A stretch of 64,000 nt of DNA from Minisyncoccia bacterium (GCA_964229335.1 CAXRCZ010000007.1:59275-123274), one strand, 5' to 3'; positions 989 to 59,708 are shown, counted from the first letter of the stretch. Notes: generated by a model from the letters alone, not told the origin. Made by a program: numbers and translations.

Positions 989-1014
989 TACTCGTAAATT
1001 ATCAAACTTAAATA

Positions 1015-1587
1015 TTAGACACGAATAAACTCGTCAACTTCTGGGAGCGGCATAATTTCTTTACCATTCTTTACCTTACCTTCCTCAAACGGAAATACAC
1101 TTATACTTCCATCTAATTCTAGATAGGCATATTCGACCTCTCCAATATTTCTCACTCCATTCTTTCTTAGTTCGGATTCTAGTTCAGCTTCAGTAAAGTT
1201 TTCAGTTTCCAACGCATGCTGAATTATTTGCCCATTTTTTACTAACAAATTTGGCCTACTATTAATAAATTTTTCGAAAGGTGACCACTTGAGTTTTAAT
1301 CTCGAAGTACCAAACTGCAACGTAATCACTGTCATAATAATTAGTGCTGCATAAATTATTGCTACAGATGGATAAAACATTACATCTCCCACCGCTGAAC
1401 CGAGCGCTACAATTAGTAACATCTCAACTGGAGTCATTTGTTTACGCGCTTTTTTTCCTCCTGCTCTCAGAAACACTAAGGCAAAGATATAAATAACCAG
1501 AACTCTAAAAGTAATTTCTAACAAGAATACCCATTCACTTTCACCAAAAATTGTTTGTGTTAGATCAAATGTAACTACCGGATCCAT
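1015..1587 (-). CDS. DUF421 (YetF-like) membrane protein
   Basis: 190-aa ORF with N-terminal TM helices and a C-terminal soluble domain typical of DUF421. Twin of 6582-7154. Confidence 0.7.
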   Translation of the reverse strand: MDPVVTFDLTQTIFGESEWVFLLEITFRVLVIYIFALVFLRAGGKKARKQMTPVEMLLIVALGSAVGDVMFYPSVAIIYAALIIMTVITLQFGTSRLKLKWSPFEKFINSRPNLLVKNGQIIQHALETENFTEAELESELRKNGVRNIGEVEYAYLELDGSISVFPFEEGKVKNGKEIMPLPEVDEFIRV

Positions 1588-1629
1588 GAAATTTTCTAAT
1601 TAATACGTGTAACGATTACTACAATATGT

Positions 1630-2238
1630 ATGTATAGTATCTTATTTTTCTTTTTTTCGCTTACGATAGCTGCGTCTGGTTTTTTAAAATGGTATGGTTT
1701 CTTAATGGATTGGATCTATCAGTCATATTCAGATGTGCCACAAATACTGTTCTCAGTAATAGTATTTACTTCGATAGTAGTACTTTATACAAGAATCGTT
1801 GGTCTTCGAAGTTTTTCTAAAATGTCTAGCTTTGATTTTGCCATCACAGTAGCGTTTGGTTCTATACTAGCTTCTGTGGTAATCGCAAAAGAACCTAAGA
1901 TATTCCAAGCTGCAGTAGCTATGGGTGGTTTATATTTGTTTCAATACGTACTGTCATTTATAAAAGTGAGGAATAAATGGTTTGCTACCTTGATTGATAA
2001 TGAACCGATTTTACTAATGAATAATCAAGGTTTTTTAGAAGACAATTTAAAAAAAGCCCGAGTTACTAAAGATGAAGTCAGAGATAAACTACGCAAAGCT
2101 AACGTGCTTCAACTCTCAGAAGTAAGGGCTGTAGTTTTTGAAACTACTGGTGATATTTCTGTATTACACAGTACATCCGACAGAAAAATAGATAGTGAAA
2201 TTACAGCCAACGTAAGAGATAAACATTTAATTCAATAA
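1630..2238 (+). CDS. DUF421 (YetF-like) membrane protein, paralog
   Basis: 202-aa ORF with the same architecture. Twin of 5931-6539. Confidence 0.7.
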   Translation: MYSILFFFFSLTIAASGFLKWYGFLMDWIYQSYSDVPQILFSVIVFTSIVVLYTRIVGLRSFSKMSSFDFAITVAFGSILASVVIAKEPKIFQAAVAMGGLYLFQYVLSFIKVRNKWFATLIDNEPILLMNNQGFLEDNLKKARVTKDEVRDKLRKANVLQLSEVRAVVFETTGDISVLHSTSDRKIDSEITANVRDKHLIQ

Positions 2239-2272
2239 CTAGCCGTCTGGGACAATGTTGGAACTTTTTTAG

Positions 2273-2800
2273 CTAAGAAATCGGCTTAATTTCTACTCCA
2301 CTATCTTTATACTCCCGGTATTCTTCCTTGGTTTCTCTCGAATCTACTGACTTACAATAAAACACTTCGTCACCAAAAGAAGACGGTACATCCCACAGCT
2401 TATGTTTAATAACAGCTCCCCACATCCACTTAGAGAGAACGATGTCATCAGATTTCATTATTCCCCCATGAGTAATATTTTCTCCTCCGTCTTTATAGAA
2501 CACCAGATCTCCAGGTTCTGGATTATTTGTTGCTACAAGAATATTCTTACTAAATAGATGTTTTATAAATTCTTGCTGTACAGGATTGTTTCCTCCAAGG
2601 AACTCTGGATCTTGCTCAAGTCCAAAAGCGAATACGAAACAATTATAGTTTATTAAGTATGCTGGTGGTGGGGCTACTATTGTTAACTCCAAAGGAAGAC
2701 GAGATCGAATATATGCTTCAAATTCATCCGGTACCCACCACTTTCTTCCTTCTTCCTCTTCAATTAGTTCTGTGAGTTCCTCTCTGTCTTTTTTGTTCAT
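2273..2800 (-). CDS. Hypothetical protein, possible papain-like Cys/His hydrolase
   Basis: 175-aa ORF with NCFVFAFG and ITHGG motifs. Twin of 5369-5896. Function not recognised. Confidence 0.55.
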   Translation of the reverse strand: MNKKDREELTELIEEEEGRKWWVPDEFEAYIRSRLPLELTIVAPPPAYLINYNCFVFAFGLEQDPEFLGGNNPVQQEFIKHLFSKNILVATNNPEPGDLVFYKDGGENITHGGIMKSDDIVLSKWMWGAVIKHKLWDVPSSFGDEVFYCKSVDSRETKEEYREYKDSGVEIKPIS

Positions 2801-3101
2801 ATGAAGAGTATACCTTGATCAAGAAGTCGAACTAAATATAGCTGAAATATCGGTGCTAGCCGTCTGGGACAATGTTGGAACTTTTCTGGGGTTATGATAA
2901 CTTACTCACAGGAGGACACCATGCACGAACAATCAAGCTCTTACGCAATGTGTTAACAGATTCTCAACCATCCTCGGTTCAAGGACTCGGACGCTCATGA
3001 GCGTTCATCTCTCTACAATAAATTGTCAGGGATGACATTTTCTGAACTCGCTGAAGAGCGAAAGAAAATTGGTCTACTGACTTATGAAGATTAATTTGCG
3101 T

Positions 3102-3129
3102 CACCTCTTTAACAGGAGGTGGCTTTTTT
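3102..3129 (+). terminator. Rho-independent terminator-like hairpin (mirror copy at 5040-5067 on the minus strand)
   Basis: Stem cacctc / gaggtg with an 8-nt loop, followed by gctttttt. Confidence 0.5.
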
Positions 3130-3161
3130 ACGAGCTACCGGACAGGGACGATGTTGGAACT

Positions 3162-3641
3162 TTATTGGCCAGCCGCTTCTAGAGCAGCAAGTGCATATCG
3201 TTGAGTTTCTGGTCGCATTCTCTCATCTTTTTCTAACAAATCATCTAGGTCTACTCTGGTGCACCATCTGTATTCTGTATCCATACTGTCTTCTTCTTGT
3301 GGATTGATTTCTCTAGAATCAGACCGTGCTGCAAATACTAAAGAGGAGTGGTCGTGTACCTCGTTTATTTTATGACGATTCATAAACAATGGTGGGACAA
3401 GGTCTTTATTTGTTTCAGTATCTGTTTGAGTCCAATTTTTAGGACCAATCAAAGTAACTTTTAGACCTGATTCTTCCCAAGCTTCTCGTACCGCAGCTTC
3501 GTTTGCATCTTCGCCGGGATCAATATGCCCTCCTGGCGTACCCCAATAGTTGTACTTTTCATGCAACCTCAGTAGTACAGCATCTCCATTTACTATGAAG
3601 GTATCTACGCAGAGGTCTAGGTAGTAATTTATATGTGCCAT
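3162..3641 (-). CDS. NUDIX hydrolase
   Basis: Nudix box GGHIDPGEDANEAAVREAWEESGL. Twin of 4528-5007. Confidence 0.85.
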   Translation of the reverse strand: MAHINYYLDLCVDTFIVNGDAVLLRLHEKYNYWGTPGGHIDPGEDANEAAVREAWEESGLKVTLIGPKNWTQTDTETNKDLVPPLFMNRHKINEVHDHSSLVFAARSDSREINPQEEDSMDTEYRWCTRVDLDDLLEKDERMRPETQRYALAALEAAGQ

Positions 3642-3833
3642 ACATGAAAGTATAGCAAATTACTGGACAGGGACTCGGTCAGGAGTCGATTATTTTCATG
3701 AATGAAAATATATCGCTCACGACCCTGGCTCGAAACTCCAGTCCCCCAGACTGGTTTTCTCCGCCTTTCTCGTCCCAGTGCTCGGTATCCATAACGATAA
3801 ATTGCGATAGCAAATGCTATCGCAGTTTAATCG

Positions 3834-3907
3834 TGGCTACCGGACAGGGACTCGAACCCCGATCGCTTGGACCAAAACCAAGTGTCCTACCATTAGACGA
3901 TCCGGTA
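3834..3907 (-). tRNA. tRNA-Gln(TTG), mirror copy
   Basis: Exact reverse complement of 4262-4335. Confidence 0.9.
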
Positions 3908-4261
3908 AAATATTTCATTACCAACGATTTACTAACGGGAGGACGCGCAGTGTCCATACTGTCGAGCTAAGTGAGGGTCTAAAGAAAATATGTTTTCTTT
4001 AGACCGAACGTGCGCTGACAGCAAGCTTTGCTTACCATTAGACGATCCGGTAATTTTGTAAAATATAGGTACGTACTTTGGTACGTACCAAAGTACGTAC
4101 CTATATTTTACAAAATTACCGGATCGTCTAATGGTAAGCAAAGCTTGCTGTCAGCGCACGTTCGGTCTAAAGAAAACATATTTTCTTTAGACCCTCACTT
4201 AGCTCGACAGTATGGACACTGCGCGTCCTCCCGTTAGTAAATCGTTGGTAATGAAATATTT

Positions 4262-4335
4262 TACCGGATCGTCTAATGGTAGGACACTTGGTTTTGGTCC
4301 AAGCGATCGGGGTTCGAGTCCCTGTCCGGTAGCCA
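4262..4335 (+). tRNA. tRNA-Gln(TTG) with encoded CCA
   Basis: Acceptor taccgga/tccggta (U1-A72). Anticodon arm cttgg-ttTTGgt-ccaag. T arm cgggg-ttcgagt-ccctg. Discriminator g followed by cca. Confidence 0.9.
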
Positions 4336-4491
4336 CGATTAAACTGCGATAGCATTTGCTATCGCAATTTATCGTTATGGATACCGAGCACTGGGACGAG
4401 AAAGGCGGAGAAAACCAGTCTGGGGGACTGGAGTTTCGAGCCAGGGTCGTGAGCGATATATTTTCATTCATGAAAATAATCGACTCCTGAC

Positions 4492-4508
4492 CGAGTCCCT
4501 GTCCAGTA
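4492..4508 (+). repeat. R1: near-exact copy of the tRNA-Gln 3' end (mirror at 3661-3677)
   Basis: cgagtccctgtccAgta matches tRNA positions 4315-4331 cgagtccctgtccGgta at 16/17, 177 nt downstream. Confidence 0.85.
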
Positions 4509-4527
4509 ATTTGCTATACTTTCATGT

Positions 4528-5007
4528 ATGGCACATATAAATTACTACCTAGACCTCTGCGTAGATACCTTCATAGTAAATGGAGATGCTGTACTACTGA
4601 GGTTGCATGAAAAGTACAACTATTGGGGTACGCCAGGAGGGCATATTGATCCCGGCGAAGATGCAAACGAAGCTGCGGTACGAGAAGCTTGGGAAGAATC
4701 AGGTCTAAAAGTTACTTTGATTGGTCCTAAAAATTGGACTCAAACAGATACTGAAACAAATAAAGACCTTGTCCCACCATTGTTTATGAATCGTCATAAA
4801 ATAAACGAGGTACACGACCACTCCTCTTTAGTATTTGCAGCACGGTCTGATTCTAGAGAAATCAATCCACAAGAAGAAGACAGTATGGATACAGAATACA
4901 GATGGTGCACCAGAGTAGACCTAGATGATTTGTTAGAAAAAGATGAGAGAATGCGACCAGAAACTCAACGATATGCACTTGCTGCTCTAGAAGCGGCTGG
5001 CCAATAA
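4528..5007 (+). CDS. NUDIX hydrolase
   Basis: 159-aa ORF with a Nudix box. Confidence 0.85.
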   Translation: MAHINYYLDLCVDTFIVNGDAVLLRLHEKYNYWGTPGGHIDPGEDANEAAVREAWEESGLKVTLIGPKNWTQTDTETNKDLVPPLFMNRHKINEVHDHSSLVFAARSDSREINPQEEDSMDTEYRWCTRVDLDDLLEKDERMRPETQRYALAALEAAGQ

Positions 5008-5035
5008 AGTTCCAACATCGTCCCTGTCCGGTAGC
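5007..5035 (+). repeat. R2: att-like repeat aaagttccaacatcgtccctgtccggtagc (mirror at 3134-3162)
   Basis: The last 15 nt, tccctgtccggtagc, are identical to the tRNA-Gln 3' end. The first 14 nt are shared with R3 and R4. Confidence 0.85.
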
Positions 5036-5284
5036 TCGTAAAAAAGCCACCTCCTGTTAAAGAGGTGACGCAAATTAATCTTCATAAGTCAGTAGACCAA
5101 TTTTCTTTCGCTCTTCAGCGAGTTCAGAAAATGTCATCCCTGACAATTTATTGTAGAGAGATGAACGCTCATGAGCGTCCGAGTCCTTGAACCGAGGATG
5201 GTTGAGAATCTGTTAACACATTGCGTAAGAGCTTGATTGTTCGTGCATGGTGTCCTCCTGTGAGTAAGTTATCATAACCCCAGA

Positions 5285-5314
5285 AAAGTTCCAACATTGT
5301 CCCAGACGGCTAGC
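5285..5314 (+). repeat. R3: att-like repeat aaagttccaacattgtcccagacggctagc (mirror at 2855-2884)
   Basis: Direct repeat of R4, and shares 11/15 of its 3' part with R2. Confidence 0.85.
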
Positions 5315-5368
5315 ACCGATATTTCAGCTATATTTAGTTCGACTTCTTGATCAAGGTATACTCTTCAT

Positions 5369-5896
5369 ATGAACAAAAAAGACAGAGAGGAACTCACAGA
5401 ACTAATTGAAGAGGAAGAAGGAAGAAAGTGGTGGGTACCGGATGAATTTGAAGCATATATTCGATCTCGTCTTCCTTTGGAGTTAACAATAGTAGCCCCA
5501 CCACCAGCATACTTAATAAACTATAATTGTTTCGTATTCGCTTTTGGACTTGAGCAAGATCCAGAGTTCCTTGGAGGAAACAATCCTGTACAGCAAGAAT
5601 TTATAAAACATCTATTTAGTAAGAATATTCTTGTAGCAACAAATAATCCAGAACCTGGAGATCTGGTGTTCTATAAAGACGGAGGAGAAAATATTACTCA
5701 TGGGGGAATAATGAAATCTGATGACATCGTTCTCTCTAAGTGGATGTGGGGAGCTGTTATTAAACATAAGCTGTGGGATGTACCGTCTTCTTTTGGTGAC
5801 GAAGTGTTTTATTGTAAGTCAGTAGATTCGAGAGAAACCAAGGAAGAATACCGGGAGTATAAAGATAGTGGAGTAGAAATTAAGCCGATTTCTTAG
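5369..5896 (+). CDS. Hypothetical protein, possible papain-like Cys/His hydrolase
   Basis: 175-aa ORF flanked by R3 and R4. Confidence 0.55.
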   Translation: MNKKDREELTELIEEEEGRKWWVPDEFEAYIRSRLPLELTIVAPPPAYLINYNCFVFAFGLEQDPEFLGGNNPVQQEFIKHLFSKNILVATNNPEPGDLVFYKDGGENITHGGIMKSDDIVLSKWMWGAVIKHKLWDVPSSFGDEVFYCKSVDSRETKEEYREYKDSGVEIKPIS

Positions 5897-5901
5897 CTAA
5901 A

Positions 5902-5930
5902 AAAGTTCCAACATTGTCCCAGACGGCTAG
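5902..5930 (+). repeat. R4: att-like repeat aaagttccaacattgtcccagacggctag (mirror at 2239-2267)
   Basis: Identical to R3 over 29 nt. Confidence 0.85.
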
Positions 5931-6539
5931 TTATTGAATTAAATGTTTATCTCTTACGTTGGCTGTAATTTCACTATCTATTTTTCTGTCGGATGTACTG
6001 TGTAATACAGAAATATCACCAGTAGTTTCAAAAACTACAGCCCTTACTTCTGAGAGTTGAAGCACGTTAGCTTTGCGTAGTTTATCTCTGACTTCATCTT
6101 TAGTAACTCGGGCTTTTTTTAAATTGTCTTCTAAAAAACCTTGATTATTCATTAGTAAAATCGGTTCATTATCAATCAAGGTAGCAAACCATTTATTCCT
6201 CACTTTTATAAATGACAGTACGTATTGAAACAAATATAAACCACCCATAGCTACTGCAGCTTGGAATATCTTAGGTTCTTTTGCGATTACCACAGAAGCT
6301 AGTATAGAACCAAACGCTACTGTGATGGCAAAATCAAAGCTAGACATTTTAGAAAAACTTCGAAGACCAACGATTCTTGTATAAAGTACTACTATCGAAG
6401 TAAATACTATTACTGAGAACAGTATTTGTGGCACATCTGAATATGACTGATAGATCCAATCCATTAAGAAACCATACCATTTTAAAAAACCAGACGCAGC
6501 TATCGTAAGCGAAAAAAAGAAAAATAAGATACTATACAT
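5931..6539 (-). CDS. DUF421 (YetF-like) membrane protein
   Basis: 202-aa ORF. Confidence 0.7.
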   Translation of the reverse strand: MYSILFFFFSLTIAASGFLKWYGFLMDWIYQSYSDVPQILFSVIVFTSIVVLYTRIVGLRSFSKMSSFDFAITVAFGSILASVVIAKEPKIFQAAVAMGGLYLFQYVLSFIKVRNKWFATLIDNEPILLMNNQGFLEDNLKKARVTKDEVRDKLRKANVLQLSEVRAVVFETTGDISVLHSTSDRKIDSEITANVRDKHLIQ

Positions 6540-6581
6540 ACATATTGTAGTAATCGTTACACGTATTAATTAGAAAATTTC

Positions 6582-7154
6582 ATGGATCCGGTAGTTACAT
6601 TTGATCTAACACAAACAATTTTTGGTGAAAGTGAATGGGTATTCTTGTTAGAAATTACTTTTAGAGTTCTGGTTATTTATATCTTTGCCTTAGTGTTTCT
6701 GAGAGCAGGAGGAAAAAAAGCGCGTAAACAAATGACTCCAGTTGAGATGTTACTAATTGTAGCGCTCGGTTCAGCGGTGGGAGATGTAATGTTTTATCCA
6801 TCTGTAGCAATAATTTATGCAGCACTAATTATTATGACAGTGATTACGTTGCAGTTTGGTACTTCGAGATTAAAACTCAAGTGGTCACCTTTCGAAAAAT
6901 TTATTAATAGTAGGCCAAATTTGTTAGTAAAAAATGGGCAAATAATTCAGCATGCGTTGGAAACTGAAAACTTTACTGAAGCTGAACTAGAATCCGAACT
7001 AAGAAAGAATGGAGTGAGAAATATTGGAGAGGTCGAATATGCCTATCTAGAATTAGATGGAAGTATAAGTGTATTTCCGTTTGAGGAAGGTAAGGTAAAG
7101 AATGGTAAAGAAATTATGCCGCTCCCAGAAGTTGACGAGTTTATTCGTGTCTAA
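6582..7154 (+). CDS. DUF421 (YetF-like) membrane protein
   Basis: 190-aa ORF. Confidence 0.7.
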   Translation: MDPVVTFDLTQTIFGESEWVFLLEITFRVLVIYIFALVFLRAGGKKARKQMTPVEMLLIVALGSAVGDVMFYPSVAIIYAALIIMTVITLQFGTSRLKLKWSPFEKFINSRPNLLVKNGQIIQHALETENFTEAELESELRKNGVRNIGEVEYAYLELDGSISVFPFEEGKVKNGKEIMPLPEVDEFIRV

Positions 7155-7180
7155 TATTTAAGTTTGATAATTTACGAGTA

Positions 7181-8311
7181 ATGTCTACAGCACTTCCGCG
7201 TTACGAATACAGTCGATTAATAATACAGCGACGACTACAAGAACTAACTAGTCTAGAAGCTCCATTTGGCTTGACGACTCGCTACGCCGTTAAAGCCAAT
7301 CCACATCCAGAAATAATAAAACTCATTGATACTGCAGGTGTTGAGTTTGATGCCAGTTCAAGTTATGAAGCAGATGAGTTATTAGAAATGGGTATCGAGG
7401 GTAATAAGATTTCGCTATCTTCACAGCAGTCAACTCCTAATCTTGCTGAATTACTTGAGCAAGGAGTGCTCTATGTGGCCACCTCGATGCGACAACTGAG
7501 AGATTTTATTGCCGCCGCCAATCATCCTGATACTGTTGGGATACGGATTAATATTGATATGGGGGTGGGGCATAACAAGCGCACCAGTACCGGGGGAGCA
7601 ACCTCAGCGTTTGGACTTTGGTACGAATATATTCCCGAAGCTCTAGCACTAGCCAAAGAAAATGATGTGATCATTGATCGCCTACATATCCATGTTGGGT
7701 CAGGTTCAGATCCCAAAGTGTGGGGAGAGGTGATGGATCGGTCGCTTTCGATTGCCACGCAATTACCCGATGTCATCGCGCTCGATATCGGAGGTGGTTT
7801 CAAAGTGCATCGATATGATACTGAGAAAGAGGCTGATATGTCGGTAATAATGGAGCTCTTTTCTAGCAAGTTAGAGAACTTTGCAGCTGAAACTGGCAGA
7901 GAGTTACGGCTTGAAATTGAACCTGGTACGTACCTGATTGCGCATGCCGGCACCTTGGTAGCAACTGTCGACGATATTGTCGATACTGGAGCCGACGGCT
8001 TCACTTTTCTGCGAATCAATACTGGTATGAATGATTTTTTGCGTACAGCTATGTACGGCGCTCAACATAAAATCGAGGTGATAAATAATGATGATGAAAC
8101 TAAAGAATACATTGTGGTAGGACACAACTGCGAGTCGGGTGATATTTTCACCCCTACTCCCGGTGACCCAGAAGAAATCGAACCGAGAATGTTAAATAAA
8201 GCAGAGATTGGCGACGAGATACGTATTTATGATGTTGGTGCGTATGGCGCAAGTATGCGAGCCAAGGGCTACAACTCGTTTCCAGACGCTGTTGAGGTGA
8301 TAGTCGATTAG
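7181..8311 (+). CDS. PLP-dependent group IV decarboxylase (LysA / Orn / Arg / carboxynorspermidine decarboxylase family)
   Basis: Motifs YAVKANP (PLP lysine), HIHVGSGS, DIGGGF, EPGTYL, GHNCESGD, GAYGASM. Confidence 0.8.
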   Translation: MSTALPRYEYSRLIIQRRLQELTSLEAPFGLTTRYAVKANPHPEIIKLIDTAGVEFDASSSYEADELLEMGIEGNKISLSSQQSTPNLAELLEQGVLYVATSMRQLRDFIAAANHPDTVGIRINIDMGVGHNKRTSTGGATSAFGLWYEYIPEALALAKENDVIIDRLHIHVGSGSDPKVWGEVMDRSLSIATQLPDVIALDIGGGFKVHRYDTEKEADMSVIMELFSSKLENFAAETGRELRLEIEPGTYLIAHAGTLVATVDDIVDTGADGFTFLRINTGMNDFLRTAMYGAQHKIEVINNDDETKEYIVVGHNCESGDIFTPTPGDPEEIEPRMLNKAEIGDEIRIYDVGAYGASMRAKGYNSFPDAVEVIVD

Positions 8312-10477: not shown

Positions 10478-11721
10478 TTAGTGGCCGGAATAAACGTTAG
10501 AGCCTTTCCGCGCTCTTTACCTCGACCAGTTCGTCCAATACGGTGTACGTAGTCCTCGAAAGTATTAGGTAGGTCGTAGTTGATGACGTGACTAACACTG
10601 TCGACATGGATTCCACGAGCAGCTACATCGGTAGCTACTAGTACTTTGGCTTGACCACTCTTAAAGCGCTTGAGAGCACGCTGTCTCTGACTATGACTTT
10701 TGTTACCGTGGATTGATTCGGCAGTGATTCCGTTTTGGTTAATCTGGGAGCCGATTCTTTCCACTTGGTGTTTCATTGCGCCAAAGATAATTACTCTGCG
10801 CAGCTCGTCTTTTTTCAAAAGCTCAAGCAAAGTATCAAACTTTTGATCACCGATATACGACACAACATCTTGTTCGATGCTGTCAGTCACGGCCTTTTTC
10901 TTTACCGAGACAGTCACAGGATTGTCCATAAAATCCTTTATCAGACCAGCGGTCTTATCATCCATAGTGGCGGAGAAGAAAAGAGTCTGTCGTTTGGGTG
11001 GAAGTAAATCCAAGATATAGCGCATATCATGAATAAATCCCATATCCAACATACGATCAGCTTCATCAAGTATTACTGAATCAATAGTCTTTAGCGGCAT
11101 CAACCGACGATCTATTAAATCTTTGACTCTGCCTGGCGTACCAATAATGAATTGATTTTTTCGCTTAAGACCACGGATTTGCGGCGCAATACTGGTACCA
11201 CCGACGCATACTGTTGAGTACATCGGGAAACCTTTGCTGAGTAATCTAAGCTCATTTTCAATTTGGATTGCTAATTCTCGAGTCGGAGTGAGAATGAGAG
11301 TAGTTTTTTGATTGTCTGATAGCTTGCGTTCAATCATAGGAATCAGAAACGCAGCTGTTTTTCCAGTACCAGTTTCGGCTAGACCCACCACGTCCTTTCC
11401 TTGCAAGATTTCTGGTATTACTTGGTCTTGAATAGGGGTTGGATCAATTAATCCCATTGTTTTGATGGCTTTTTTCAGAGTTGCGGTAAGGGGTAGGGCA
11501 GAAAATTGTGATTTTGGTACGTATACTTCCTCTGCTACCTCTACAGGATTGCGGTTGATAAACTGAGTCGGGTCAAAAGACGGCATTTGACGGCGTTTTG
11601 AGGTTCGGGTCCGAGTACGAGAAGAAGAGCTCGAGTAACGTCTTCGATTGTTTTGGCTAGCATTATTTTTACGACGTCGAAATTGGCTACCGCCACTTCG
11701 ACGGGGTCGAGTGTTTGTCAT
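10474..11721 (-). CDS. DEAD-box ATP-dependent RNA helicase with a basic N-terminal tail
   Basis: Q motif PTPIQ, plus AETGTGKT, DEAD, SAT and HRIGRTGR. Confidence 0.9.
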   Translation of the reverse strand: MTNTRPRRSGGSQFRRRKNNASQNNRRRYSSSSSRTRTRTSKRRQMPSFDPTQFINRNPVEVAEEVYVPKSQFSALPLTATLKKAIKTMGLIDPTPIQDQVIPEILQGKDVVGLAETGTGKTAAFLIPMIERKLSDNQKTTLILTPTRELAIQIENELRLLSKGFPMYSTVCVGGTSIAPQIRGLKRKNQFIIGTPGRVKDLIDRRLMPLKTIDSVILDEADRMLDMGFIHDMRYILDLLPPKRQTLFFSATMDDKTAGLIKDFMDNPVTVSVKKKAVTDSIEQDVVSYIGDQKFDTLLELLKKDELRRVIIFGAMKHQVERIGSQINQNGITAESIHGNKSHSQRQRALKRFKSGQAKVLVATDVAARGIHVDSVSHVINYDLPNTFEDYVHRIGRTGRGKERGKALTFIPATN

Positions 11722-12133: not shown

Positions 12134-12305
12134 CTTTTTGTTCCGGTGTTTGCTATGCGAAAGTAGTCATTCTTATGTATAAGAAAGCCGTACTAGCTGG
12201 AGGACGCTTTCGTAAGACCTTGCCAGCTACTTTGCAAAGCATGAAGTAAAGTAGCGACAAGGTATACGGCTCCTGTAAGGAGTAAGAGATGCTATATTTC
12301 TATAT

Positions 12306-15623: not shown

Positions 15624-16029
15624 TTGCATACTATGCAGGCACGATGGTCGCCTAAGCTAGTAAATTGTGAACCACAATTGGATAGTTTGGGAGGAAAGTC
15701 CGAACACGCACTAGATTATCTAGTAGCCGGGTAGCGGGTAACACCCGTCATTTAGTCTTTGACTAAAAGAGGTGCGAGCAGAGACGTCACAATCGAAAGA
15801 AAGTGAGTTCCTTCGGGAATAGCTCTATAAGAAATTATAGAGGTGAAACGGCTAAATCCTTACCTGCGTGCAAGGCCGTGCTTTTGTCTCATGGCAAAAG
15901 AGAGCCGCATGAAATATCGAGTAATTGATATTCAAGATATATGACCATCCTAGCCTCACTTTTTGTGTGTGTTTAGACACTAAATACGTACAAAAAGTGA
16001 GGCTACGACAGAATTCGGCTTATGTGCAA
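15624..16029 (+). ncRNA. rnpB: RNase P RNA (bacterial type A)
   Basis: GGAGGAAAGTCCG (CR-I) at about 15692. ACAGAATTCGGCTTAT (CR-V) at about 16008. Terminal pairing ttgca/tgcaa. Terminator at 16033-16055. Contains a long extra hairpin at about 15950-16005. Confidence 0.85.
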
Positions 16030-16112
16030 AAAAGCAGCTCGCAAGAGCTGCTTTTACTATATGATAGACTGAGTCTATAGGAGGCAACAATAGTGTTTTA
16101 AATAATTTTTAT

Positions 16113-22279: not shown

Positions 22280-22382
22280 ACGCTCTATTCTACCTGAAGA
22301 TACTAATAATTTTAAGGGTTGATGGTAGTATAGTAGTGGTGTGTCTTTCCACACAGATTTATGTCTGCGAAAGATTATATTG

Positions 22383-22438
22383 GCCGCTCGTTACAGCCAT
22401 AATCTCCCTTGATAGGTCGATTCTGGCTAAACGCCGGC
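22383..22438 (+). repeat. 56-nt three-stem hairpin motif, copy 1 (candidate structured RNA leader)
   Basis: gccg-ct-cgt-tac-agcca-[24 nt with GTCGATTC]-tggct-aa-acg-c-cggc. Lies 43 nt upstream of the ftsB-like start. Confidence 0.6.
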
Positions 22439-22481
22439 ATAAATTCGCAATATTCGTGTTATCACACTCATTTGCTCATTC

Positions 22482-22865
22482 ATGTTTGATTTTTACCAAA
22501 AACGGAAAATCAGAGCTGTTCTAACTTCTGTCTATACCAGAATATTTTTGCTGATACTGGCCGTTCTGGTGGCTATGAGTGCCTATACGAGGTACAACAT
22601 TGCTGATCAAATGTCAGACCGCAGAGCTGAAGCTGAACGAGAAGTAGAGGAACTACAAACCCGCAAGGTAGAACTAGAAGAAAAAGTAAAATACCTCAAA
22701 GATGACCGCGGAATGGAGGCGGAAATGAGAAGACAGTTTGATGTGGCCCTACCTGAAGAAGAAGTAGTGGTGATAGTAGACGCTGAAAATGACCAGGGAG
22801 CAAATGTAATACTGCCCCTAGAGGCTCAAACCGAAGAGAGAAAATGGTACGAATTCTGGCGATAA
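22482..22865 (+). CDS. FtsB/DivIC-like septum formation initiator
   Basis: One TM helix followed by a coiled coil (EAEREVEELQTRKVELEEKVKYLK). Confidence 0.6.
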   Translation: MFDFYQKRKIRAVLTSVYTRIFLLILAVLVAMSAYTRYNIADQMSDRRAEAEREVEELQTRKVELEEKVKYLKDDRGMEAEMRRQFDVALPEEEVVVIVDAENDQGANVILPLEAQTEERKWYEFWR

Positions 22866-23217: not shown

Positions 23218-23284
23218 GTTACAGTGAAAAATAAGAGAAAACACCCACCGAAGCGGATGAGTCTCCCGCTTGCGCGTAGGTGTT

Positions 23285-23701
23285 TTAGTTTGGGCTATAT
23301 TCGCGCCAAGGTACGACAGCTCCGTTGAGAGCAATATAGACACCTTTAGGAAGGTGCCGGATCGACCCTACCGCCATACCGAAGTTGAAGTCGACATCGG
23401 AACCAGGCTCACCTTCAGGCACACGACATCCAACAAGGACGATGGTACGAGCCCTGATTTCAGCAAGATGAGCAGCAGCTCGTTGTATTTTGTCGATATC
23501 GTGAATGACGATGTGGTTCGAGAAGTTCGCCTTGATGATGTAGTGTTCTGCAGTATCATAGCTGGCTTGCTTTCCGGTACAGGCTGGACAGAACATCACA
23601 GCCTCATCTTTAATGTGAGCTCGATCCAAAAGTGACTGGAGCGAGCGGCAGAAATTCTTGTATTCTCCATAAGGCATAATGCCAATCATTTCAAGACCCA
23701 T
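23285..23701 (-). CDS. Hypothetical protein, high-GC orphan
   Basis: ggagg RBS 5 nt before the ATG at 23701. 138 aa, no motif recognised. Terminator hairpin at 23232-23280. Confidence 0.6.
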   Translation of the reverse strand: MGLEMIGIMPYGEYKNFCRSLQSLLDRAHIKDEAVMFCPACTGKQASYDTAEHYIIKANFSNHIVIHDIDKIQRAAAHLAEIRARTIVLVGCRVPEGEPGSDVDFNFGMAVGSIRHLPKGVYIALNGAVVPWREYSPN

Positions 23702-23806
23702 CTGCGCCTCCAATTTTTAGGGTGCTATAAACTATCTAAATAATACACTAAAATAACGAACTGTCAAGTAATATTGCTAAATCACATTAGTTTCTTATCT
23801 AAAAGA

Positions 23807-23819
23807 AGGAGCAGACTCG
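23807..23819 (-). repeat. Copy of the tRNA-Phe 3' part (cgagtctgcTcct), distal boundary of the tRNA-Phe island
   Basis: 12/13 identity to cgagtctgcCcct in tRNA-Phe, in the same orientation. Abuts ttagtaactcgtgac. Confidence 0.6.
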
Positions 23820-24277
23820 GTCACGAGTTACTAAGTATATTTGTTCGTGATGCTCAAAATATTGCTTAGGGACATTGACTCGTCCTGGCGGTCACAAGGC
23901 TGAATTGAGTATCAAGATACTCAATTCAGCAAGTGCCGCGGGACACGCCTCGCTCGTTTTCAGCTCCAGGTAATGAGCTGAAAACATCGTTCCGGCGTTC
24001 GAGTCTGCACGCAAGCAAAGCAGTTTGCTTGCTCCCTGAGCAGTCAAAACCCCGCCAAGGGCGGGGTTTCTTTGTGCAGATGCACGGGACAATTCTCGAA
24101 CTTTTGATCTGAGAGTCCTTCACTCTATCAAGCAACTCGAACCACTCCAAAACGCAAACGACGACTCTGTTGAGCCGCCGATTGCTGATGTCGCGTAAGA
24201 GCGACTCTCTCAGCGCGACCGTACATAAAAACCCTCGATGCACGAATGCATCGAGGGTCTGCGGTAGCTAGCAATAG

Positions 24278-24772
24278 CTACTTGGGATTACGAACGAACA
24301 TCCAAGAAACGTTGCTGTCCCACCTGCGGTCGGGGTGACCGTTACGAGCGTAGATCCAGCGCCCGAAGTCGTCGCATACCACGCGGAACACGTTACGATC
24401 GCCTCCCGAGTCCACGATGGTTTCCATTGCCACAAGCGACCATTCGCCACGGGGCAACAGATCGTGGTCATGTAGCCAAAGCTGCGGGGCCGCTTCGGCA
24501 GGGCAGAGCGAGAGGTTGTGACTTTCGGCAGCAGCGTAAATCTGCGCTGTGGTCGCACCGTCTTCCAGTCCCAGCTCTTTGACCAACACCCGAACCAGGT
24601 CGAGCGGAGTTTCCGTATCCTCGAAGGTAGCCCGTTCGAGAATATCGTCACCCCAGTCGCCGATCCTGATGCCAGCATCTTCGAGGCGTTTGCGAGCTTC
24701 TTGAGCGCTTCCGAGATTCCCGACCGTGACTGTTTTCCAGGTCGGGAAGGTCGATTGTGTTGCAGTCTTCAT
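24278..24772 (-). CDS. Hypothetical protein, high-GC cargo of the tRNA-Phe island
   Basis: gggag RBS before the ATG. 164 aa. A spot count of one 60-nt line gave about 60% GC, against about 42% in a lepA line. Confidence 0.65.
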   Translation of the reverse strand: MKTATQSTFPTWKTVTVGNLGSAQEARKRLEDAGIRIGDWGDDILERATFEDTETPLDLVRVLVKELGLEDGATTAQIYAAAESHNLSLCPAEAAPQLWLHDHDLLPRGEWSLVAMETIVDSGGDRNVFRVVCDDFGRWIYARNGHPDRRWDSNVSWMFVRNPK

Positions 24773-24909
24773 TGAACATCTCCCGAGCCAGCTTCCGCCA
24801 GCTCATTTTGAGTGGCGGGTGGTTAACCCAGGAAAAACCTACCTGAATTCAATCACATATCGTGAATCTGTCAACTTGTGCCGTGACTCAGGAGAGCTAT
24901 CTTATTCTG

Positions 24910-25059
24910 ATGACTCACGACGAATGGCTGGAAGAATACATCGATATTTGCGCCACAATCTTCATACGACTGCAGCGAGAAGGACGACTGGAAGAGGTTC
25001 TGTCGACATATGAGAAGACTCGAACTGAGAAAGTCTTAGAAACCAACGATATTTCATGA
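24910..25059 (+). CDS. Small hypothetical protein
   Basis: aggagag RBS upstream of the ATG at 24910. 49 aa, followed by a terminator at 25104-25129. Confidence 0.3.
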   Translation: MTHDEWLEEYIDICATIFIRLQREGRLEEVLSTYEKTRTEKVLETNDIS

Positions 25060-25156
25060 CTTGAGAATCTGACTAAGATTTCTCGAAAGCTTGGAATACA
25101 AAAATACCGCTCAGGTGAGCGGTATTTTTGTGAGGCAGAAAAGCCGTCTCTTTTTG

Positions 25157-25230
25157 TGCTCAGGGGCAGACTCGAACTGCCGACACCTGGTTCTTCAGAC
25201 CAGTGCTCTAACCAACTGAGCTACCTGAGC
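25157..25230 (-). tRNA. tRNA-Phe(GAA)
   Basis: Acceptor gctcagg/cctgagc. Anticodon loop ctGAAga. T arm ggcag-ttcgagt-ctgcc. Confidence 0.92.
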
Positions 25231-25655: not shown

Positions 25656-25730
25656 GTCCTTATAGTTTAATGGATAAAACGGCTCCCTCCTAAGGAGCAA
25701 ATCTAGGTTCGATTCCTAGTGAGGACACCA
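25656..25730 (+). tRNA. tRNA-Arg(CCT) with encoded CCA
   Basis: Acceptor gtcctta/tgaggac. Anticodon arm gctcc-ctCCTaa-ggagc. T arm ctagg-ttcgatt-cctag. Confidence 0.9.
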
Positions 25731-25893
25731 ATCAGCCGCCCTGAACACGAACGCGTTCAGGGCGTTGCTGTTGGTAGTACACTACTAGGAATCGAAAGAC
25801 GGAGCTGGTACACAAGACGAGCGTAGCGAGGGCTTGTCAGCGAGTCCGGGGAGGAAGTTCTTAACGAACGAAGTGAGTTTAGAAACTTGACCC

Positions 25894-25912
25894 CGATTCC
25901 TAGTAAGGATAC
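25894..25912 (+). repeat. Copy of the tRNA-Arg 3' end
   Basis: cgattcctagtAaggaTac vs tRNA 25710-25728 cgattcctagtGaggaCac (17/19), 184 nt downstream. Confidence 0.85.
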
Positions 25913-38900: not shown

Positions 38901-39016
38901 TAATTTCTTACTCGTAAGGTGTCCACCATCATACCAGAGTAGGGCAATCTAATGAAGAAACCACCTAGTAGTCTAGATGGTTTCTGTTGGGAAGATAAAT
39001 TGTAGTTTTTAGAACG

Positions 39017-39150
39017 CTGGTACCGGTCACAAGTTACTAAGTGTTTTCACTAACTTCGTTAGTTGCGAGCACTAAGTACTCGCGACCCCAGCTCGCTTCT
39101 CGTCGCTGCGGGATAGAGCCGCTCCTCACATCGCTGCGCTTGGCGGTACC
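39017..39150 (-). repeat. Solo copy of the tRNA-linked element family, between ftsZ and trxB, bounded by ggtacc
   Basis: The plus strand carries gtcacaagttactaa (39026-39040), cttcgtt, ctaagtactcgcgaccccagctcgct (39072-39097) and gagccgctcctc. These blocks occur in the same order as at the tRNA loci. Confidence 0.65.
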
Positions 39151-39151
39151 C

Positions 39152-40381
39152 TTATTTCAGCTTACTTCGTCGCAGAAATGCGGGTACCGCCCCCCAATCG
39201 TCCTCTTCATCAGAGTCTTCACTCGCGTCGACTGGTTTTGGTTCACGTTTGGGAATTTCTGGACGTGAAGACTGATTAGTGTTTGCTGCTGGAGCTGGTG
39301 TTTCCTCAGCTTTCTTTGGTAGAGAGTTAAATATCTTTCCTTTGGTTGGTGTAATCTCTATATCTTCATCATCCTCTTGAATCGGAGCTCGGCGAGAGAT
39401 ATGCATGCCACCGGTGTTGAGAGTTTCGTCAGGGAAACCAGTAGCGATAACGGTGACTTTGATTTCATTCTTCTTCAACTTCTCGTCACGAATTGCTCCG
39501 AAGATAACTTTTGCTTGAGAATCAATTGATTCAGTGATTACCCGTGCCGCGTCTTGGATTTCGAGCATACCAAGATCATCTCCACCAGCGATGGCGAATA
39601 GAACACCTTTCGCTCCAGTAATCGAAACTTCCAATAGGGGAGAGTTAATAGCGTCTCGAGAAGCTTCCTCAGCACGCTTGTCGCCAGAAGAAATACCTAC
39701 ACCCATCAAGGCTGAGCCGGCATTTTCCATTACGCTGCGGATGTCAGCGAAGTCGACATTGATGATACCTGGCATGGTAATCAGGTCAGAGATACCTTCT
39801 ACCGCTTGACGTAGAACGTTGTCACACTGCTCAAACGCGTTTTTAACAGTGGTCTCCTTGTCTACAATTGCTAGCAAGCGATCGTTAGGGATGGTGATGA
39901 GTGCATCAACCTCTTTCTTCAGTTCTTCGATTCCTTGCAAAGCAAGACGCATACGCTCTTGGCCTTCAAATAAGAATGGTTTAGTCACTACACCAACAGT
40001 GAGAGCACCACTTTCACGAGCGATTTTAGCTACGACGGGAGCAGATCCGGTACCGGTACCTCCACCCATTCCTCCAGTGATGAAGATCATATCTGATCCT
40101 TTGATGGCGTTGGCGATTTCTTCTCGAGTTTCTTCAGCAGCGCGGCGACCCATGTCAGGGTTACCACCAGCTCCTAGACCGCGGGTGAGGTTCTTACCGA
40201 TGTGAATTTTTTTCTTAGCTAGCGAGTGATGTAAGTCTTGGGCGTCACTGTTTACTGCAATAAATTCCACTCCTTTAACTTTTGAGTTCACCATGTGGTT
40301 CACGGCGTTCTTTCCAGAGCCGCCGACACCAACGACTCTTATACGTGCAAATGACTCTACGTCTGATTTAATTTGTTCCAT
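39152..40381 (-). CDS. ftsZ: Cell division protein FtsZ
   Basis: [11 protein letters not shown] tubulin signature and NTD...GxxGxG start. Confidence 0.95.
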
Positions 40382-43608: not shown

Positions 43609-44229
43609 TTAGTTAGAGGTATTAGTTACGCTAGTAATGGCGCCTGGAAAAAACTCAAATGACTGAGGCGGAAACAGTCGTACCCACGCTCTGCCAATAA
43701 TCTTATCCTCTTCCAGTGGTCCCCAGGTGCGAGAGTCAGAGCTTTTATCACGATTATCACCCATCACAAAATATTCATCTTCACTGAGGGTGGTAGTGAA
43801 TGGAGCGGTCGGTGTCATTTGAGCGATGTATGGTTCGTCTAGTACAAAGCCATTGGGTGAATTTTGATTAGATATTGTCACTTCGTTATCAATGATTGAA
43901 ATGGTTTCTCCTGGTAAGCCAATCACTCGCTTAATAAAGAATTTTGATGGATCACGGGGGTAGCGGAATATGATTACTTCACCGCGAGCAGGCTCATCAA
44001 AGTGGTAAGTTACTTGATCAATTATCAAATACTCACCGGTATAAAATGTCTCTTCCATAGATGCGCCAGAGACAATAAATGGTTGAGCAATAAATAACCG
44101 AATCGGGACTACGATAATAATGGCGATGATAGAAAAGCGGACAATTTCTGCGAGAGGATGCTCCTTCTTCTCCGGTTTGGTGGTGTCGGTAGAAAGATCA
44201 GTGGAGGGTTGTTGAGAAAATAACGCCAT
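43609..44229 (-). CDS. lepB: Signal peptidase I
   Basis: SGASME (Ser box), RVIGLPGE, and GDNRDKSSDSR. Confidence 0.9.
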   Translation of the reverse strand: MALFSQQPSTDLSTDTTKPEKKEHPLAEIVRFSIIAIIIVVPIRLFIAQPFIVSGASMEETFYTGEYLIIDQVTYHFDEPARGEVIIFRYPRDPSKFFIKRVIGLPGETISIIDNEVTISNQNSPNGFVLDEPYIAQMTPTAPFTTTLSEDEYFVMGDNRDKSSDSRTWGPLEEDKIIGRAWVRLFPPQSFEFFPGAITSVTNTSN

Positions 44230-44323
44230 GAGAAGATGATTTTTATTATTATACGAAATTTTAGAAGGTAAAACAAATTAAGCAAAATCACGAGCAACAA
44301 AGTTGCGACTAAATTTTGCTTAT

Positions 44324-44379
44324 GCCGGCGCTTAGCCAGAATCGACCTCTCAAGGGATATTTTGGCTGTAGCGAGCGGC
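44324..44379 (-). repeat. 56-nt three-stem hairpin motif, copy 2
   Basis: Minus strand reads gccg-ct-cgc-tac-agcca-[24 nt with GTCGATTC]-tggct-aa-gcg-c-cggc. Lies 94 nt upstream of the lepB ATG. Confidence 0.6.
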
Positions 44380-44423
44380 AAAGGAAGTCTGTTCCGTTGC
44401 CGACAGTTAAAGCAAGTACTTAT

Positions 44424-44479: not shown

Positions 44480-44662
44480 AAAGAAAGTACAACATCAACT
44501 ACTATTAGTTAAATTACTCTGAAGTGATTGGGTCGGCACTGTGCTTAGAACACGAATCGAGTTCTCCGCTCACAATCTTAGATTGCTCCGCGAGATTCCA
44601 ATCACAGCGCCGACCCAACACCGCCCTCCGAAAACACTAAACAACATGCTATTGTTTTAAGA

Positions 44663-59071: not shown

Positions 59072-59144
59072 CCGCCCATAGCTCAGTTGGTAGAGCAGGT
59101 GGCTCTTAACCACAAGGTCCTAGGTTCAAGTCCTAGTGGGCGGA
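59072..59144 (+). tRNA. tRNA-Lys(CTT)
   Basis: Acceptor ccgccca/tgggcgg (C1-G72). Anticodon loop ctCTTaa. T arm ctagg-ttcaagt-cctag. Confidence 0.85.
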
Positions 59145-59340
59145 CAACGTTAAGAAAAACTGTGCCTGCGCACAGTTTTTTAGTTGTCCGAGGCGGAGCT
59201 ATGTTTTTTCTCTTAACCTTGAGAAAAAGCCAGCGAGCCGGGGTCGCGAGTACTTAGCAAAATTTTTGCGAAGCGAATATTTTGGTTAGTAACTGGTGAC
59301 GTCAACGTAAAGAAAAACTGCCCAACGGCAGTTTTTCTAT
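59145..59340 (+). repeat. tRNA-linked element copy downstream of tRNA-Lys, bracketed by a duplicated flank-plus-terminator
   Basis: caacgttaagaaaaactg + hairpin at 59145-59182 recurs as caacgtaaagaaaaactg + hairpin at 59304-59340. The interior has cgaggcggag, agcgagccggggtcgcgagtacttag (59232-59257), gcgaag and ttagtaactggtgac (59286-59300). Confidence 0.7.
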
Positions 59341-59451: not shown

Positions 59452-59474
59452 TTCGTGAGTCCTGGGCGGGAATC
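59452..59474 (-). repeat. Exact 23-nt copy of the tRNA-Cys 3' end plus flank
   Basis: ttcgtgagtcctgggcgggaatc is identical at 59452-59474 and 59631-59653. Confidence 0.9.
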
Positions 59475-59636
59475 TTCCCACAGTTACTAATTCGTTACAC
59501 TCATAAGTACTGCTAGACGCGGCTCAACCGTTTCAATTTCTAGGAATGGAAATTGAACCATGTCTCCGCCGTTCGATTCCAGAAAGATTGTGCGCAGGCA
59601 CAATCTACCCATGCCTACGAAAACTTAGTTTTCGTG

Positions 59637-59708
59637 AGTCCTGGGCGGGAATCGAACCCGCGCATGGAGGTTTTGCAGACCTCAGCGTTACCACTTCGCC
59701 ACCAGGAC
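59637..59708 (-). tRNA. tRNA-Cys(GCA)
   Basis: Acceptor gtcctgg/ccaggac. Anticodon arm gaggt-ctGCAaa-acctc. T arm gcggg-ttcgatt-cccgc. Confidence 0.9.

Follow-up and report, generated by a model that had tools for sequence, protein, structure and literature searches.

The window, a 64,000-nt stretch of a Minisyncoccia bacterium genome, carries a tRNA-Arg gene followed on the same strand by a unit whose last segment repeats the tRNA 3′ end (Table 1). This copy (X2) lies 184 nt downstream of the corresponding tRNA segment (X1) and differs from it at two positions, as the sequence-only reading had reported, and two matches for CGATTCCTAGTGAGGACAC arose in none of 100 dinucleotide shuffles. In addition to the direct copy X2, the unit contains the tRNA 3′ segment in inverted form (antiX). 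Since antiX is inverted and X2 is direct, the local order is sense/antisense/sense (X1, antiX, core, and X2). The block 'GGAATCGAA..CGGAG' had been taken as a fixed motif of the element, which does not hold because its first part is the reverse complement of the T-loop and T-stem of the adjoining tRNA. The complement behind this block is 13 nt long at tRNA-Arg, 10 nt at tRNA-Cys, and 12 nt at tRNA-Phe (the last read directly from the sequence). Two further blocks of that reading, 'AGCGAGCYGGGGTCGCGAGTACTTAG' and 'TTAGTAACTNGTGAC', correspond to the two strands of the helices P4 and P3 described below. The earlier observation was real, and it came without antiX, without the covarying three-way junction, and without the RtT analogue. 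The Arg element is one of a family of ~90-140-nt non-coding modules that Paceibacteria (CPR) carry directly downstream of tRNA genes and in the same orientation. The window itself comes from a CPR bacterium of Paceibacteria type.

Table 1 Features of the tRNA-Arg unit and of the other copies in the 64-kb window.
Feature	Positions	Strand	Evidence and remarks
tRNA-Arg(CCT), anchor gene, CCA encoded	25656..25730	+	ARAGORN; Rfam tRNA, 68.4 bits
X1 (CGATTCCTAGTGAGGACAC), from T-loop position 56 to the tRNA-Arg 3′ end, before CCA	25710..25728	+	
Hairpin H (GCCGCCCTGAAC / GTTCAGGGCG), then a T-rich stretch	25735..25764	+	Sequence and fold; between tRNA-Arg and module
antiX (ACTAGGAATCGAA), 5′ strand of P1	25784..25796	+	Exact 13-nt reverse complement of the tRNA-Arg T-loop/T-stem
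Conserved three-way-junction core, ending in ...CTTGACC	25797..25893	+	RNAalifold, covariance-model alignment, covariation
X2, 17/19 copy of X1; 3′ strand of P1, then an unpaired acceptor 3′-strand tail	25894..25912	+	
Full type-A model match, Arg copy	25783..25909	+	Covariance model R1, 81.1 bits (seed member)
Type-A copy after tRNA-Gln (4262-4335), X2 at ~4492-4510	4389..4507	+	74.2 bits; seed member
Mirror image of the Gln copy	3662..3780	-	Fold-back of the window start
Type-A copy after tRNA-Lys (59072-59145)	59177..59316	+	23.1 bits, E 4e-4
Type-A variant after tRNA-Cys (59636-59708, -)	59452..59585	-	22.3 bits, E 6e-4; antiX GGAATCGAAC
Type-A copy between ftsZ and trxB, without a tRNA	39008..39155	-	29.2 bits, E 9e-6
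Type-A-like end of the tRNA-Phe island	23808..24011	-	15.0 bits, E 0.064, marginal
Cargo of ~1.1 kb, from tRNA-Phe (25156-25230, -) to the Phe-island core	24012..25155	-	Two overlapping unannotatable ORFs

We used a covariance model (R1) built from 12 units, of which 10 came from other genomes and only the Arg and Gln units from the window, and searched the window with filters off (59.9 kb). The six loci previously grouped as one family were all matched by R1, including four outside the seed, and the similarity of their blocks is significant, although the Phe-island end is only a marginal match (E 0.064). The tRNA-Gln copy is found twice because window positions 1-4084 are an exact fold-back of 4085-8168. 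The offsets between tRNA end and copy given before, 184 nt (Arg), 179 nt (Cys), and 177 nt (Gln), are right; the direct repeat matches at 17/18 positions in Gln and at 23/23 in Cys (X1 59631-59653, X2 59452-59474). At the Arg, Gln, Lys, and Cys copies, the gap from the tRNA end to the module is 33-54 nt. Contrary to what had been proposed, the duplicate does not always start in the T-loop. At tRNA-Lys, P1 and the direct repeat CAACGTTAAGAAAAACTG combine the end of the tRNA with the trailer and one half of a hairpin (59145-59162 versus 59303-59320, 17/18). Between ftsZ and trxB, P1 consists of a copy and an inverted copy of GGCGGTACCC, a GGTACC-containing segment of the conserved last FtsZ codons, so that the repeat there is made of FtsZ C-terminal codons. 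The Lys and ftsZ/trxB copies have a 25/26 block in common. At the end of the Phe island, antiX (GCAGACTCGAAC) lies near 24000, and the core end TTAGTAACTCGTGAC (23820-23834) is followed by X2 (CGAGTCTGCTCC, 23808-19). The whole Phe cargo stretch is missing in a syntenic relative (L006), since only 40 nt separate tRNA-Phe from Grx there.

The scan of 1.28 Mb of related genomes together with the window gave 59 R1 matches. For 55 of the 59, a tRNA on the same strand ends 9-80 nt upstream or one unit farther away. In a search for direct copies, a copy of the tRNA 3′ end with at least 15/17 identity was found 40-400 nt downstream of 32/294 tRNAs (80 IF-2 loci from GTDB genomes and the HSP20 loci), compared with 1/310 in the upstream control. 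These results bear out a real multi-copy family tied to tRNA 3′ ends. In an independent sample of at least 120 metagenome stretches, a tRNA end lies at most 120 nt upstream in 74 of 108 matches, and at least 27 isoacceptor types are occupied, both among the matches listed. Type A thus occurs behind many isoacceptors, in agreement with the earlier view that several different tRNAs serve as sites, and the view that the unit is too small to encode a protein is also supported. Type B, a second kind of core captured by model R2, is framed by antiX and X2 in the same way. Among 305 tRNAs, type A stands behind 45 and type B behind 30, together ~25%; occupancy per isoacceptor is 10-48% for types with four or more genes, by A in some genomes and by B in others. 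At least one further core type exists, and the third type reads antiX-CGAACGGATTGTCGG...

Since about a quarter of the tRNA genes in the sampled Paceibacteria carry such modules, they are a major feature of CPR genomes that has gone unannotated. The observation holds and extends further than first reported: it is a large undescribed family that is absent from Rfam. At the gathering threshold and at E ≤ 5, Rfam yielded only tRNAs and a sub-threshold RNase P RNA in the window, and no ribozyme, riboswitch, RtT, ω-RNA, or bridge-like model matched any copy at E ≤ 5, which agrees with the first impression that no described family could be recognised. Our literature search likewise found no described CPR tRNA-trailer family. 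The modules will confuse the annotation of tRNA islands, att sites, and intergenic RNAs.

RNAalifold predicts that antiX pairs with X2 to form P1, which closes a three-way junction; two of its arms are hairpins, and the nucleotides at the junction hardly vary. From 5′ to 3′, the junction consists of A(AA)G, P2a, a GGA/GA internal loop, the P2 hairpin, GG, P4, and the P3 hairpin. P2a has the form G-N-C / G-N′-C, in which N and N′ covary (CG 30, AU 11, GC 9, and UA 4). P4 is GGUCG-like / UGACC-like with a near-invariant G·U pair, and no spacer separates it from X2. A hammerhead or K-turn reading was set aside by inspection because of the junction strand lengths (3-4, 2, and 0 nt) and the GGA/GA loop. 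We also considered antiX as a free-standing feature of tRNA terminators and rejected this, since every strong antiX case has some core type behind it. P1 also tracks the cognate tRNA: over 29 units, exact complementarity to it extends for a median of 9 nt and a maximum of 14 nt, compared with 6 nt for non-cognate tRNAs. Several units contain all of the complement of X, interrupted by a hairpin where the acceptor and T-stem meet.

The fold is supported by covariation. In the genome set (83 related genome loci and the window, n = 59 matches), 89.8% of the cells were paired in alignments that had been fitted to the covariance model, versus 63.6% after shuffling (reached in 0/500) and 35-44% after sliding, and 382 double changes were observed versus 113 in the shuffled sets. 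The metagenome set, 100 loci among those listed and none of them in the R1 seed, likewise aligned by fitting to the model, gave 90.0% paired cells versus 68.8% shuffled and 32-40% slid (108 matches among those listed), where the pattern used for the choice of loci fixes part of P4; 610 double changes were observed versus 192 shuffled among the matches listed. P1 covaries as well, with helices 1-2 paired in 69-91% and double changes at all nine pairs. The pair 114-184 occurs as GU (46), GC (41), AU (12), and others (4), and G·U cells outnumber A·C cells overall (102 versus 40). Since G·U cells exceed A·C cells, the fold is assigned to the tRNA-sense strand, which suits co-transcription with the tRNA. 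Covariation by itself is common to an RNA fold and a single-stranded DNA fold and cannot tell the two apart (PMC5737381).

The boundaries of the repeats fall into two classes. In the common class, X2 begins at T-loop position 56 with the junction GTGAC|CGAnTCC. Across 43 units, X2 and the tRNA are at least 95% identical per site over positions 56-73, position 74 is mismatched in 6/43, and beyond position 74 the mismatch rises to 35-55%, so the repeat stops sharply at 73/74. In the second class, which is typical of tRNA-Lys and includes the window copy, P1 is formed from the last bases of the tRNA and the trailer (GCACAAAG / CTTTGTGC), and the hairpin starts at the tRNA end. The junctions read GTGAC|CGA or GTGAC|CAC, and the repeat is 7-9 nt long in the 3′-end class, ~19 nt in the T-loop class, and at least 40 nt in arrays. 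The footprint of an insertion with a fixed target duplication is not seen, as the repeat has no fixed length and two junction classes exist. X2 mismatches amount to 2.1% at sites unpaired with antiX and 1.8% at paired sites. Since the unpaired sites are also ~98% identical, RNA pairing alone does not explain the sharp identity block of X2, which looks like attachment-site identity, recent duplication, or gene conversion. As a possible signature of retro-origin, CCA present in X2 but not in the tRNA was counted in 6/44 units and the reverse in 2/44, which is no clear asymmetry, and this candidate was dropped.

The occupancy of orthologous sites varies among relatives. In L006, tRNA-Arg and tRNA-Phe are followed by bare terminators, and only 75 nt lie between ftsZ and trxB, where the site is empty. 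In another relative (L002), tRNA-Arg lacks a unit and tRNA-Phe is followed by two, of which the first shows a perfect 22-nt repeat. Together with the patchy occupancy of isoacceptors, these loci reveal both filled and empty tRNA sites. Relatives do not show fixed structures at every tRNA, and the idea of a unit that comes and goes survives. For near-identical strains with empty sites, the exact-protein matches of HSP20, Grx, and ORF92 all came from the same sample. Units also form tandem arrays of up to five copies. Cores that are 90-97% identical over 60-75 nt recur at different tRNAs or in separate metagenomes, where their P1 helices are unrelated; the shared core runs from the AAG after antiX to GTGAC, and antiX and X2 are local. 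This whole-core identity test replaced an argument for transposition from a shared P2 subfamily, which is weakened because P3 is not common to the same units. Some units hold cargo between the tRNA and antiX, namely 1.1 kb at tRNA-Phe of the window, 1.1 kb in L179, and a GIY-YIG gene in L066. In some units, a palindrome that begins in the tRNA 3′ strand, spans the hairpin, and reaches antiX is perfect over ~30 bp, and a DNA-level process is therefore suggested. A terminator-like hairpin with a T-run stands between the tRNA and the core in 20/44 units, versus 53/235 element-free tRNAs, and these hairpins therefore argue against efficient read-through.

Enzymes that could mobilise the units were sought in the available part of the source genome and in related loci. 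No full-length relative with an integrase, and no autonomous element, appeared among the 20 window ORFs, ~200 related loci, and IMG/VR. Tyrosine, serine, HUH, and DEDD enzymes were absent from the 20 window ORFs (Pfam) and from the neighbourhood of ~200 copies, and TnpB, IscB, and IS110 genes were absent from the window ORFs tested and the loci inspected. Among the cargo ORFs, Pfam and PADLOC returned nothing relevant except the GIY-YIG ORF in L066. The core pattern occurred in 46 IMG/VR stretches; none of them scored with the model and none had a tRNA, and we thus regard them as chance matches.

The arrangement of antiX, core, and tRNA-3′ copy is already known, since the RtT RNA behind E. coli tRNA-Tyr has the same layout. 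The 178-bp units of E. coli tyrT-tyrV all finish with the terminal 19 nt of tRNA-Tyr, AAUCCUUCCCCCACCACCA, and the outer helix of the RtT consensus (RF00391), GgGaaGGAU / AUCCuuCcC, corresponds to antiX paired with the tRNA-Tyr copy. Like RtT, the Arg, Gln, Lys, and Cys copies of the window and 55/59 matches in relatives lie directly 3′ of a same-strand tRNA. The unit ends in a T-loop-started tRNA 3′ copy at Arg, Cys, and Gln but not at Lys or ftsZ, and an upstream complement pairs with the tRNA copy to close a multi-branched fold. Tandem units, strain-variable copy number, and the lack of an encoded enzyme are also shared. However, no homology is detectable: the 45-bit threshold of RF00391 was not reached, with no window match even at E ≤ 5, and in the reciprocal search with R1 only P1 contributed, at 7-8 bits. 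In enterobacteria, RtT is linked to tRNA-Tyr, whereas the CPR family stands behind at least 27 isoacceptors among the metagenome matches listed, and it differs in its compact three-way core, 3′-end junction class, occasional non-tRNA sites, and versions with cargo. According to PMC3318445, which cites Bosl and Kersten 1991, rtT exists as an RNA that is liberated from the tyrT transcript. No function is known for it (PMC3318445; bioRxiv 10.1101/2024.07.17.603846). The 45-year-old tyrT/RtT puzzle of E. coli gains a second, much larger and more diverse example of its design, and a comparative analysis of a tRNA 3′ copy, an inverted copy, and a structured core becomes possible for the first time.

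We favour, at roughly an even chance, the reading that the family is an RtT-like structured-RNA module of tRNA trailers, which is gained, lost, and amplified by recombination through the copies of the tRNA 3′ end. Between the two options raised from the sequence, a tRNA-linked small RNA gene is now preferred, and a non-autonomous MITE-like element is not supported. The module would act as an RNA that is read through from the tRNA promoter within the precursor, fold once X2 has been transcribed, and be cut out by the processing of tRNA ends, as with rtT. Since antiX can pair with the tRNA 3′ half or with X2, the module could affect the folding or maturation of the upstream tRNA in cis. Units may be lost or amplified by recombination between X copies, and they would be acquired by recombination in which the tRNA body and X2 serve as homology arms, with no dedicated recombinase in cis. 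The read-through RNA is favoured by the sense-strand fold, the interchange of G·U and G-C, the conserved loop and junction bases, the fixed orientation, and the RtT precedent. On the other hand, a purely RNA account is opposed by the terminator hairpins, the sharp X2 block, the palindromes, the cargo, and the filled and empty sites. When a core reaches a new tRNA, antiX may be rewritten by template-switch homogenisation of the overlapping inverted repeats, which is one possibility.

The observations that do not suit a purely RNA account argue for a DNA-level process, and the main rival reading, which we regard as possible but rather unlikely, is a non-autonomous mobile DNA cassette. Here antiX, core, and X2 would constitute a folded single-stranded attachment site, comparable to integron attC or CTX-φ attP. 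The stem would mimic the target duplex, and a recombinase acting in trans would exchange strands at tRNA positions 55/56 or at the 3′ end, leaving a tRNA regenerated with an element-borne X1, the cargo or hairpin, antiX, the core, and the displaced original 3′ end as X2. The sense/antisense/sense order, present in all tRNA-linked copies, is that of R′ ... R″-VTS-R′ in integron cassettes, and the one-strand fold, the tandem stacking, and the presence of a single gene in some units are further likenesses. The repeat spans the T-loop to the exact tRNA end, the other class of junctions falls on the tRNA 3′ end, and Williams is said to have named in 2002 the T-loop and the tRNA 3′ end as the two sublocations used by tRNA-targeting integrases. 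Orthologous sites that are filled or empty, units with cargo (as at the window tRNA-Phe, in L179, and in L066), and units that stack and accrete with identical cores and different P1 helices are also consistent with a cassette, and where tRNA genes are co-oriented, their sense strand would serve as the template of lagging-strand synthesis. The folded attP of CTX-φ-type elements exploits host Xer recombinases; two opposite target copies ~100 nt apart fold there as a mimic of the duplex, and such a fold would permit integration without an element-encoded recombinase. However, the CPR family has neither a phage genome nor a dif-like sequence, and its intervening segment is conserved and structured. 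The lack of a tyrosine, serine, HUH, or DEDD enzyme among the 20 tested ORFs of the window and beside ~200 copies, and the absence of the family from IMG/VR, count against a cassette. IntI is lacking in the 20 window ORFs, and the junction sequences have no RYYYAAC/GTTRRRY boxes and thus no R-box consensus. attC sites have conserved stem boxes and a variable apex, whereas the stem of the CPR family is local tRNA sequence and its apical part is conserved in sequence, which is the opposite pattern. The frequent interchange of G·U and G-C and the GGA/GA internal loop are more typical of RNA.

Other DNA-based origins fit less well. Integrative elements that target tRNA genes also produce direct repeats from the T-loop or 3′ end, leave the tRNA intact, accrete in tandem, and occupy orthologous sites variably; these elements, however, are kilobases long, and the CPR modules are ~90-190 nt with no integrase in cis at any locus inspected. 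The modules might instead be scars or miniaturised, CIME-like remnants of integrase-bearing islands that once resided in the tRNA genes, given that direct repeats of tRNA 3′ ends are the classic attL/attR and that tRNA-Phe and tRNA-Gln of the window have larger, foreign-looking insertions. We consider such an origin very unlikely, since random deletion remnants are not expected to share a compensated three-way junction across a bacterial class, nor to have a uniform size of 90-140 nt and an inverted tRNA copy, and no integrase remnant was seen. CIMEs are not known to have the conserved single-strand fold and the inverted tRNA copy. MITEs are likewise small, non-coding, and multi-copy, with inverted-repeat ends and a stable hairpin-like fold. 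However, the CPR modules do not share terminal inverted repeats, as the inverted repeat differs at every site and the P1 strands copy the neighbouring tRNA, and they have no fixed-length target duplication and no parent insertion sequence that we could find. At the other extreme, degenerate tandem tRNA duplicates or chance terminator-like hairpins would mean that there is no distinct feature at all. tRNA genes do duplicate in tandem, and A-rich trailers and hairpins are common behind tRNAs, yet this account is barely credible and was refuted by the model matches (E-values to 1e-21 outside the seed), the upstream control (1/310), and covariation; the core has no remnants of a D-arm or anticodon arm, and it stands behind at least 27 isoacceptors among the metagenome matches listed.

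Two further readings assign the RNA a more specific role. A guide-RNA gene resembling ω-RNA/reRNA or bridge RNA, in which X2 and antiX program a TnpB, IscB, or IS110-type protein, would account for the presence, directly after the conserved scaffold, of 17-23 nt that match exactly a genomic target lying behind the T-loop GGTT, and for segments complementary to both target strands. It is highly improbable in our judgement, because the would-be guide X2 is sequestered in P1 rather than free, the target resides in the same genome and would entail self-targeting, and neither a TnpB, IscB, or IS110 gene in the window ORFs or loci inspected nor an Rfam match at E ≤ 5 was found. TIGR-Tas dual-guide arrays were also considered and set aside, as those are 36-nt units in long arrays. 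A bolder proposal, which we hold to be distinctly unlikely, is that the module works in cis as an RNA switch for tRNA maturation, or else is a recombinase-free or trans-mobilised DNA element whose target is set by the pairing of antiX with X. As a switch, the three-way junction would bind a ligand or protein, and the folded state would lock antiX onto the decoy X2; in the unfolded state, antiX would invade the acceptor and T arm, so that the precursor misfolds or its 3′ end is masked. This would amount to riboswitch-like control of individual tRNAs, portable by rewriting P1. If the competition between antiX-tRNA and antiX-decoy pairing is functional, it would represent a new way of controlling tRNA maturation, and if the modules move as DNA, they would represent a mobile element with ends written from its target.

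The tRNA-Phe island carries a 1.1 kb cargo with higher GC content, and neither of its two cargo ORFs was matched in Pfam or PADLOC. In the syntenic relative L006, the gap between tRNA-Phe and Grx is only 40 nt. Both ends of the island are break points in the same-sample Logan short-read assembly.

Features of the window discussed here
Feature	Position	Strand
tRNA-Phe island	23230-25155	
Cargo ORF, tRNA-Phe island	24278-24772	-
Cargo ORF, tRNA-Phe island	24726-25013	+
Further ORF, tRNA-Phe island, past X2	23285-23713	-
tRNA-Gln 5′ end and its upstream copy	4261-4281; 4116-4136	
AAAGTTCCAACAT copies (n = 3), each followed by tRNA-Gln-3′-end-like sequence	5005-5034; 5284-5313; 5901-5930	
Type-B-like core	~12190-12290	
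RNase P RNA	15639-16031	
63-nt inverted repeat	22380-22442; 44320-44382	
DivIC-like gene	22482-22865	
ORF downstream of the other 63-nt copy	43609-44229	-
GC-rich hairpin	44533-44640	-

Stacked and cargo-bearing units were found at loci outside the window. At one of them (L186 4480-5130, reverse strand), three cores are stacked 3′ of tRNA-Gly(TCC): two units belong to the T-loop class and one, which uses the preceding X2 as its base, to the 3′-end class. The sequence from the acceptor 3′ strand through the terminator forms a perfect palindrome of ~30 bp. At another (L066 7686-8090), the bracketing repeat of a 316-nt unit is the tRNA-Gly 3′ end; the unit lacks a type-A core and contains an ORF for an 87-aa GIY-YIG nuclease (Pfam E 3e-14). 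A third core type, antiX-CGAACGGATTGTCGGTTTACGAGCACAG…, lies 3′ of tRNAs in L020 (~11240-11460) and downstream of tRNA-Cys in L029, and is caught by neither covariance model, R1 (type A) nor R2 (type B). Within the window, a type-B-like core, …AAGACCTTGCC…GGTATACGGCTCCTGTAAGGAG, matches R2 partially (29.7 bits) with no tRNA nearby.

Around tRNA-Gln, 21 nt of the tRNA 5′ end have a second copy 145 nt upstream of the gene; 124 nt lie between the two copies. This repeat is a 5′-side counterpart of the tRNA 3′ duplications. On the downstream side, the three AAAGTTCCAACAT copies set apart single genes (NUDIX, DUF7689 and YetF-like), an arrangement resembling a cassette array whose repeats are of a different type. 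Since positions 4085-8168 are mirrored in 1-4084 as an exact reverse complement with a 0-nt spacer, tRNA-Gln and its module, with all contents, are present twice in 1-8168. This inverted duplication has the appearance of a fold-back that arose during assembly or amplification at a contig end, though it may instead be a real hairpin end.

Other repeats and structured RNAs were also observed in the window. Two inverted copies of a 63-nt sequence (90% identity), which has no match in Rfam, each lie upstream of a gene and may be a leader or promoter element that the two genes share. The RNase P RNA is of bacterial class A (73 bits, under the Rfam threshold of 100 bits) and is flanked by DUF192 and a TPR gene, as in syntenic relatives. 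The long GC-rich hairpin, GGTGTTGGGTCGGCGCTGTG…CACAGTGCCGACCCAATCAC, weakly matches R1 (14.7 bits) and is probably an unrelated structured RNA.
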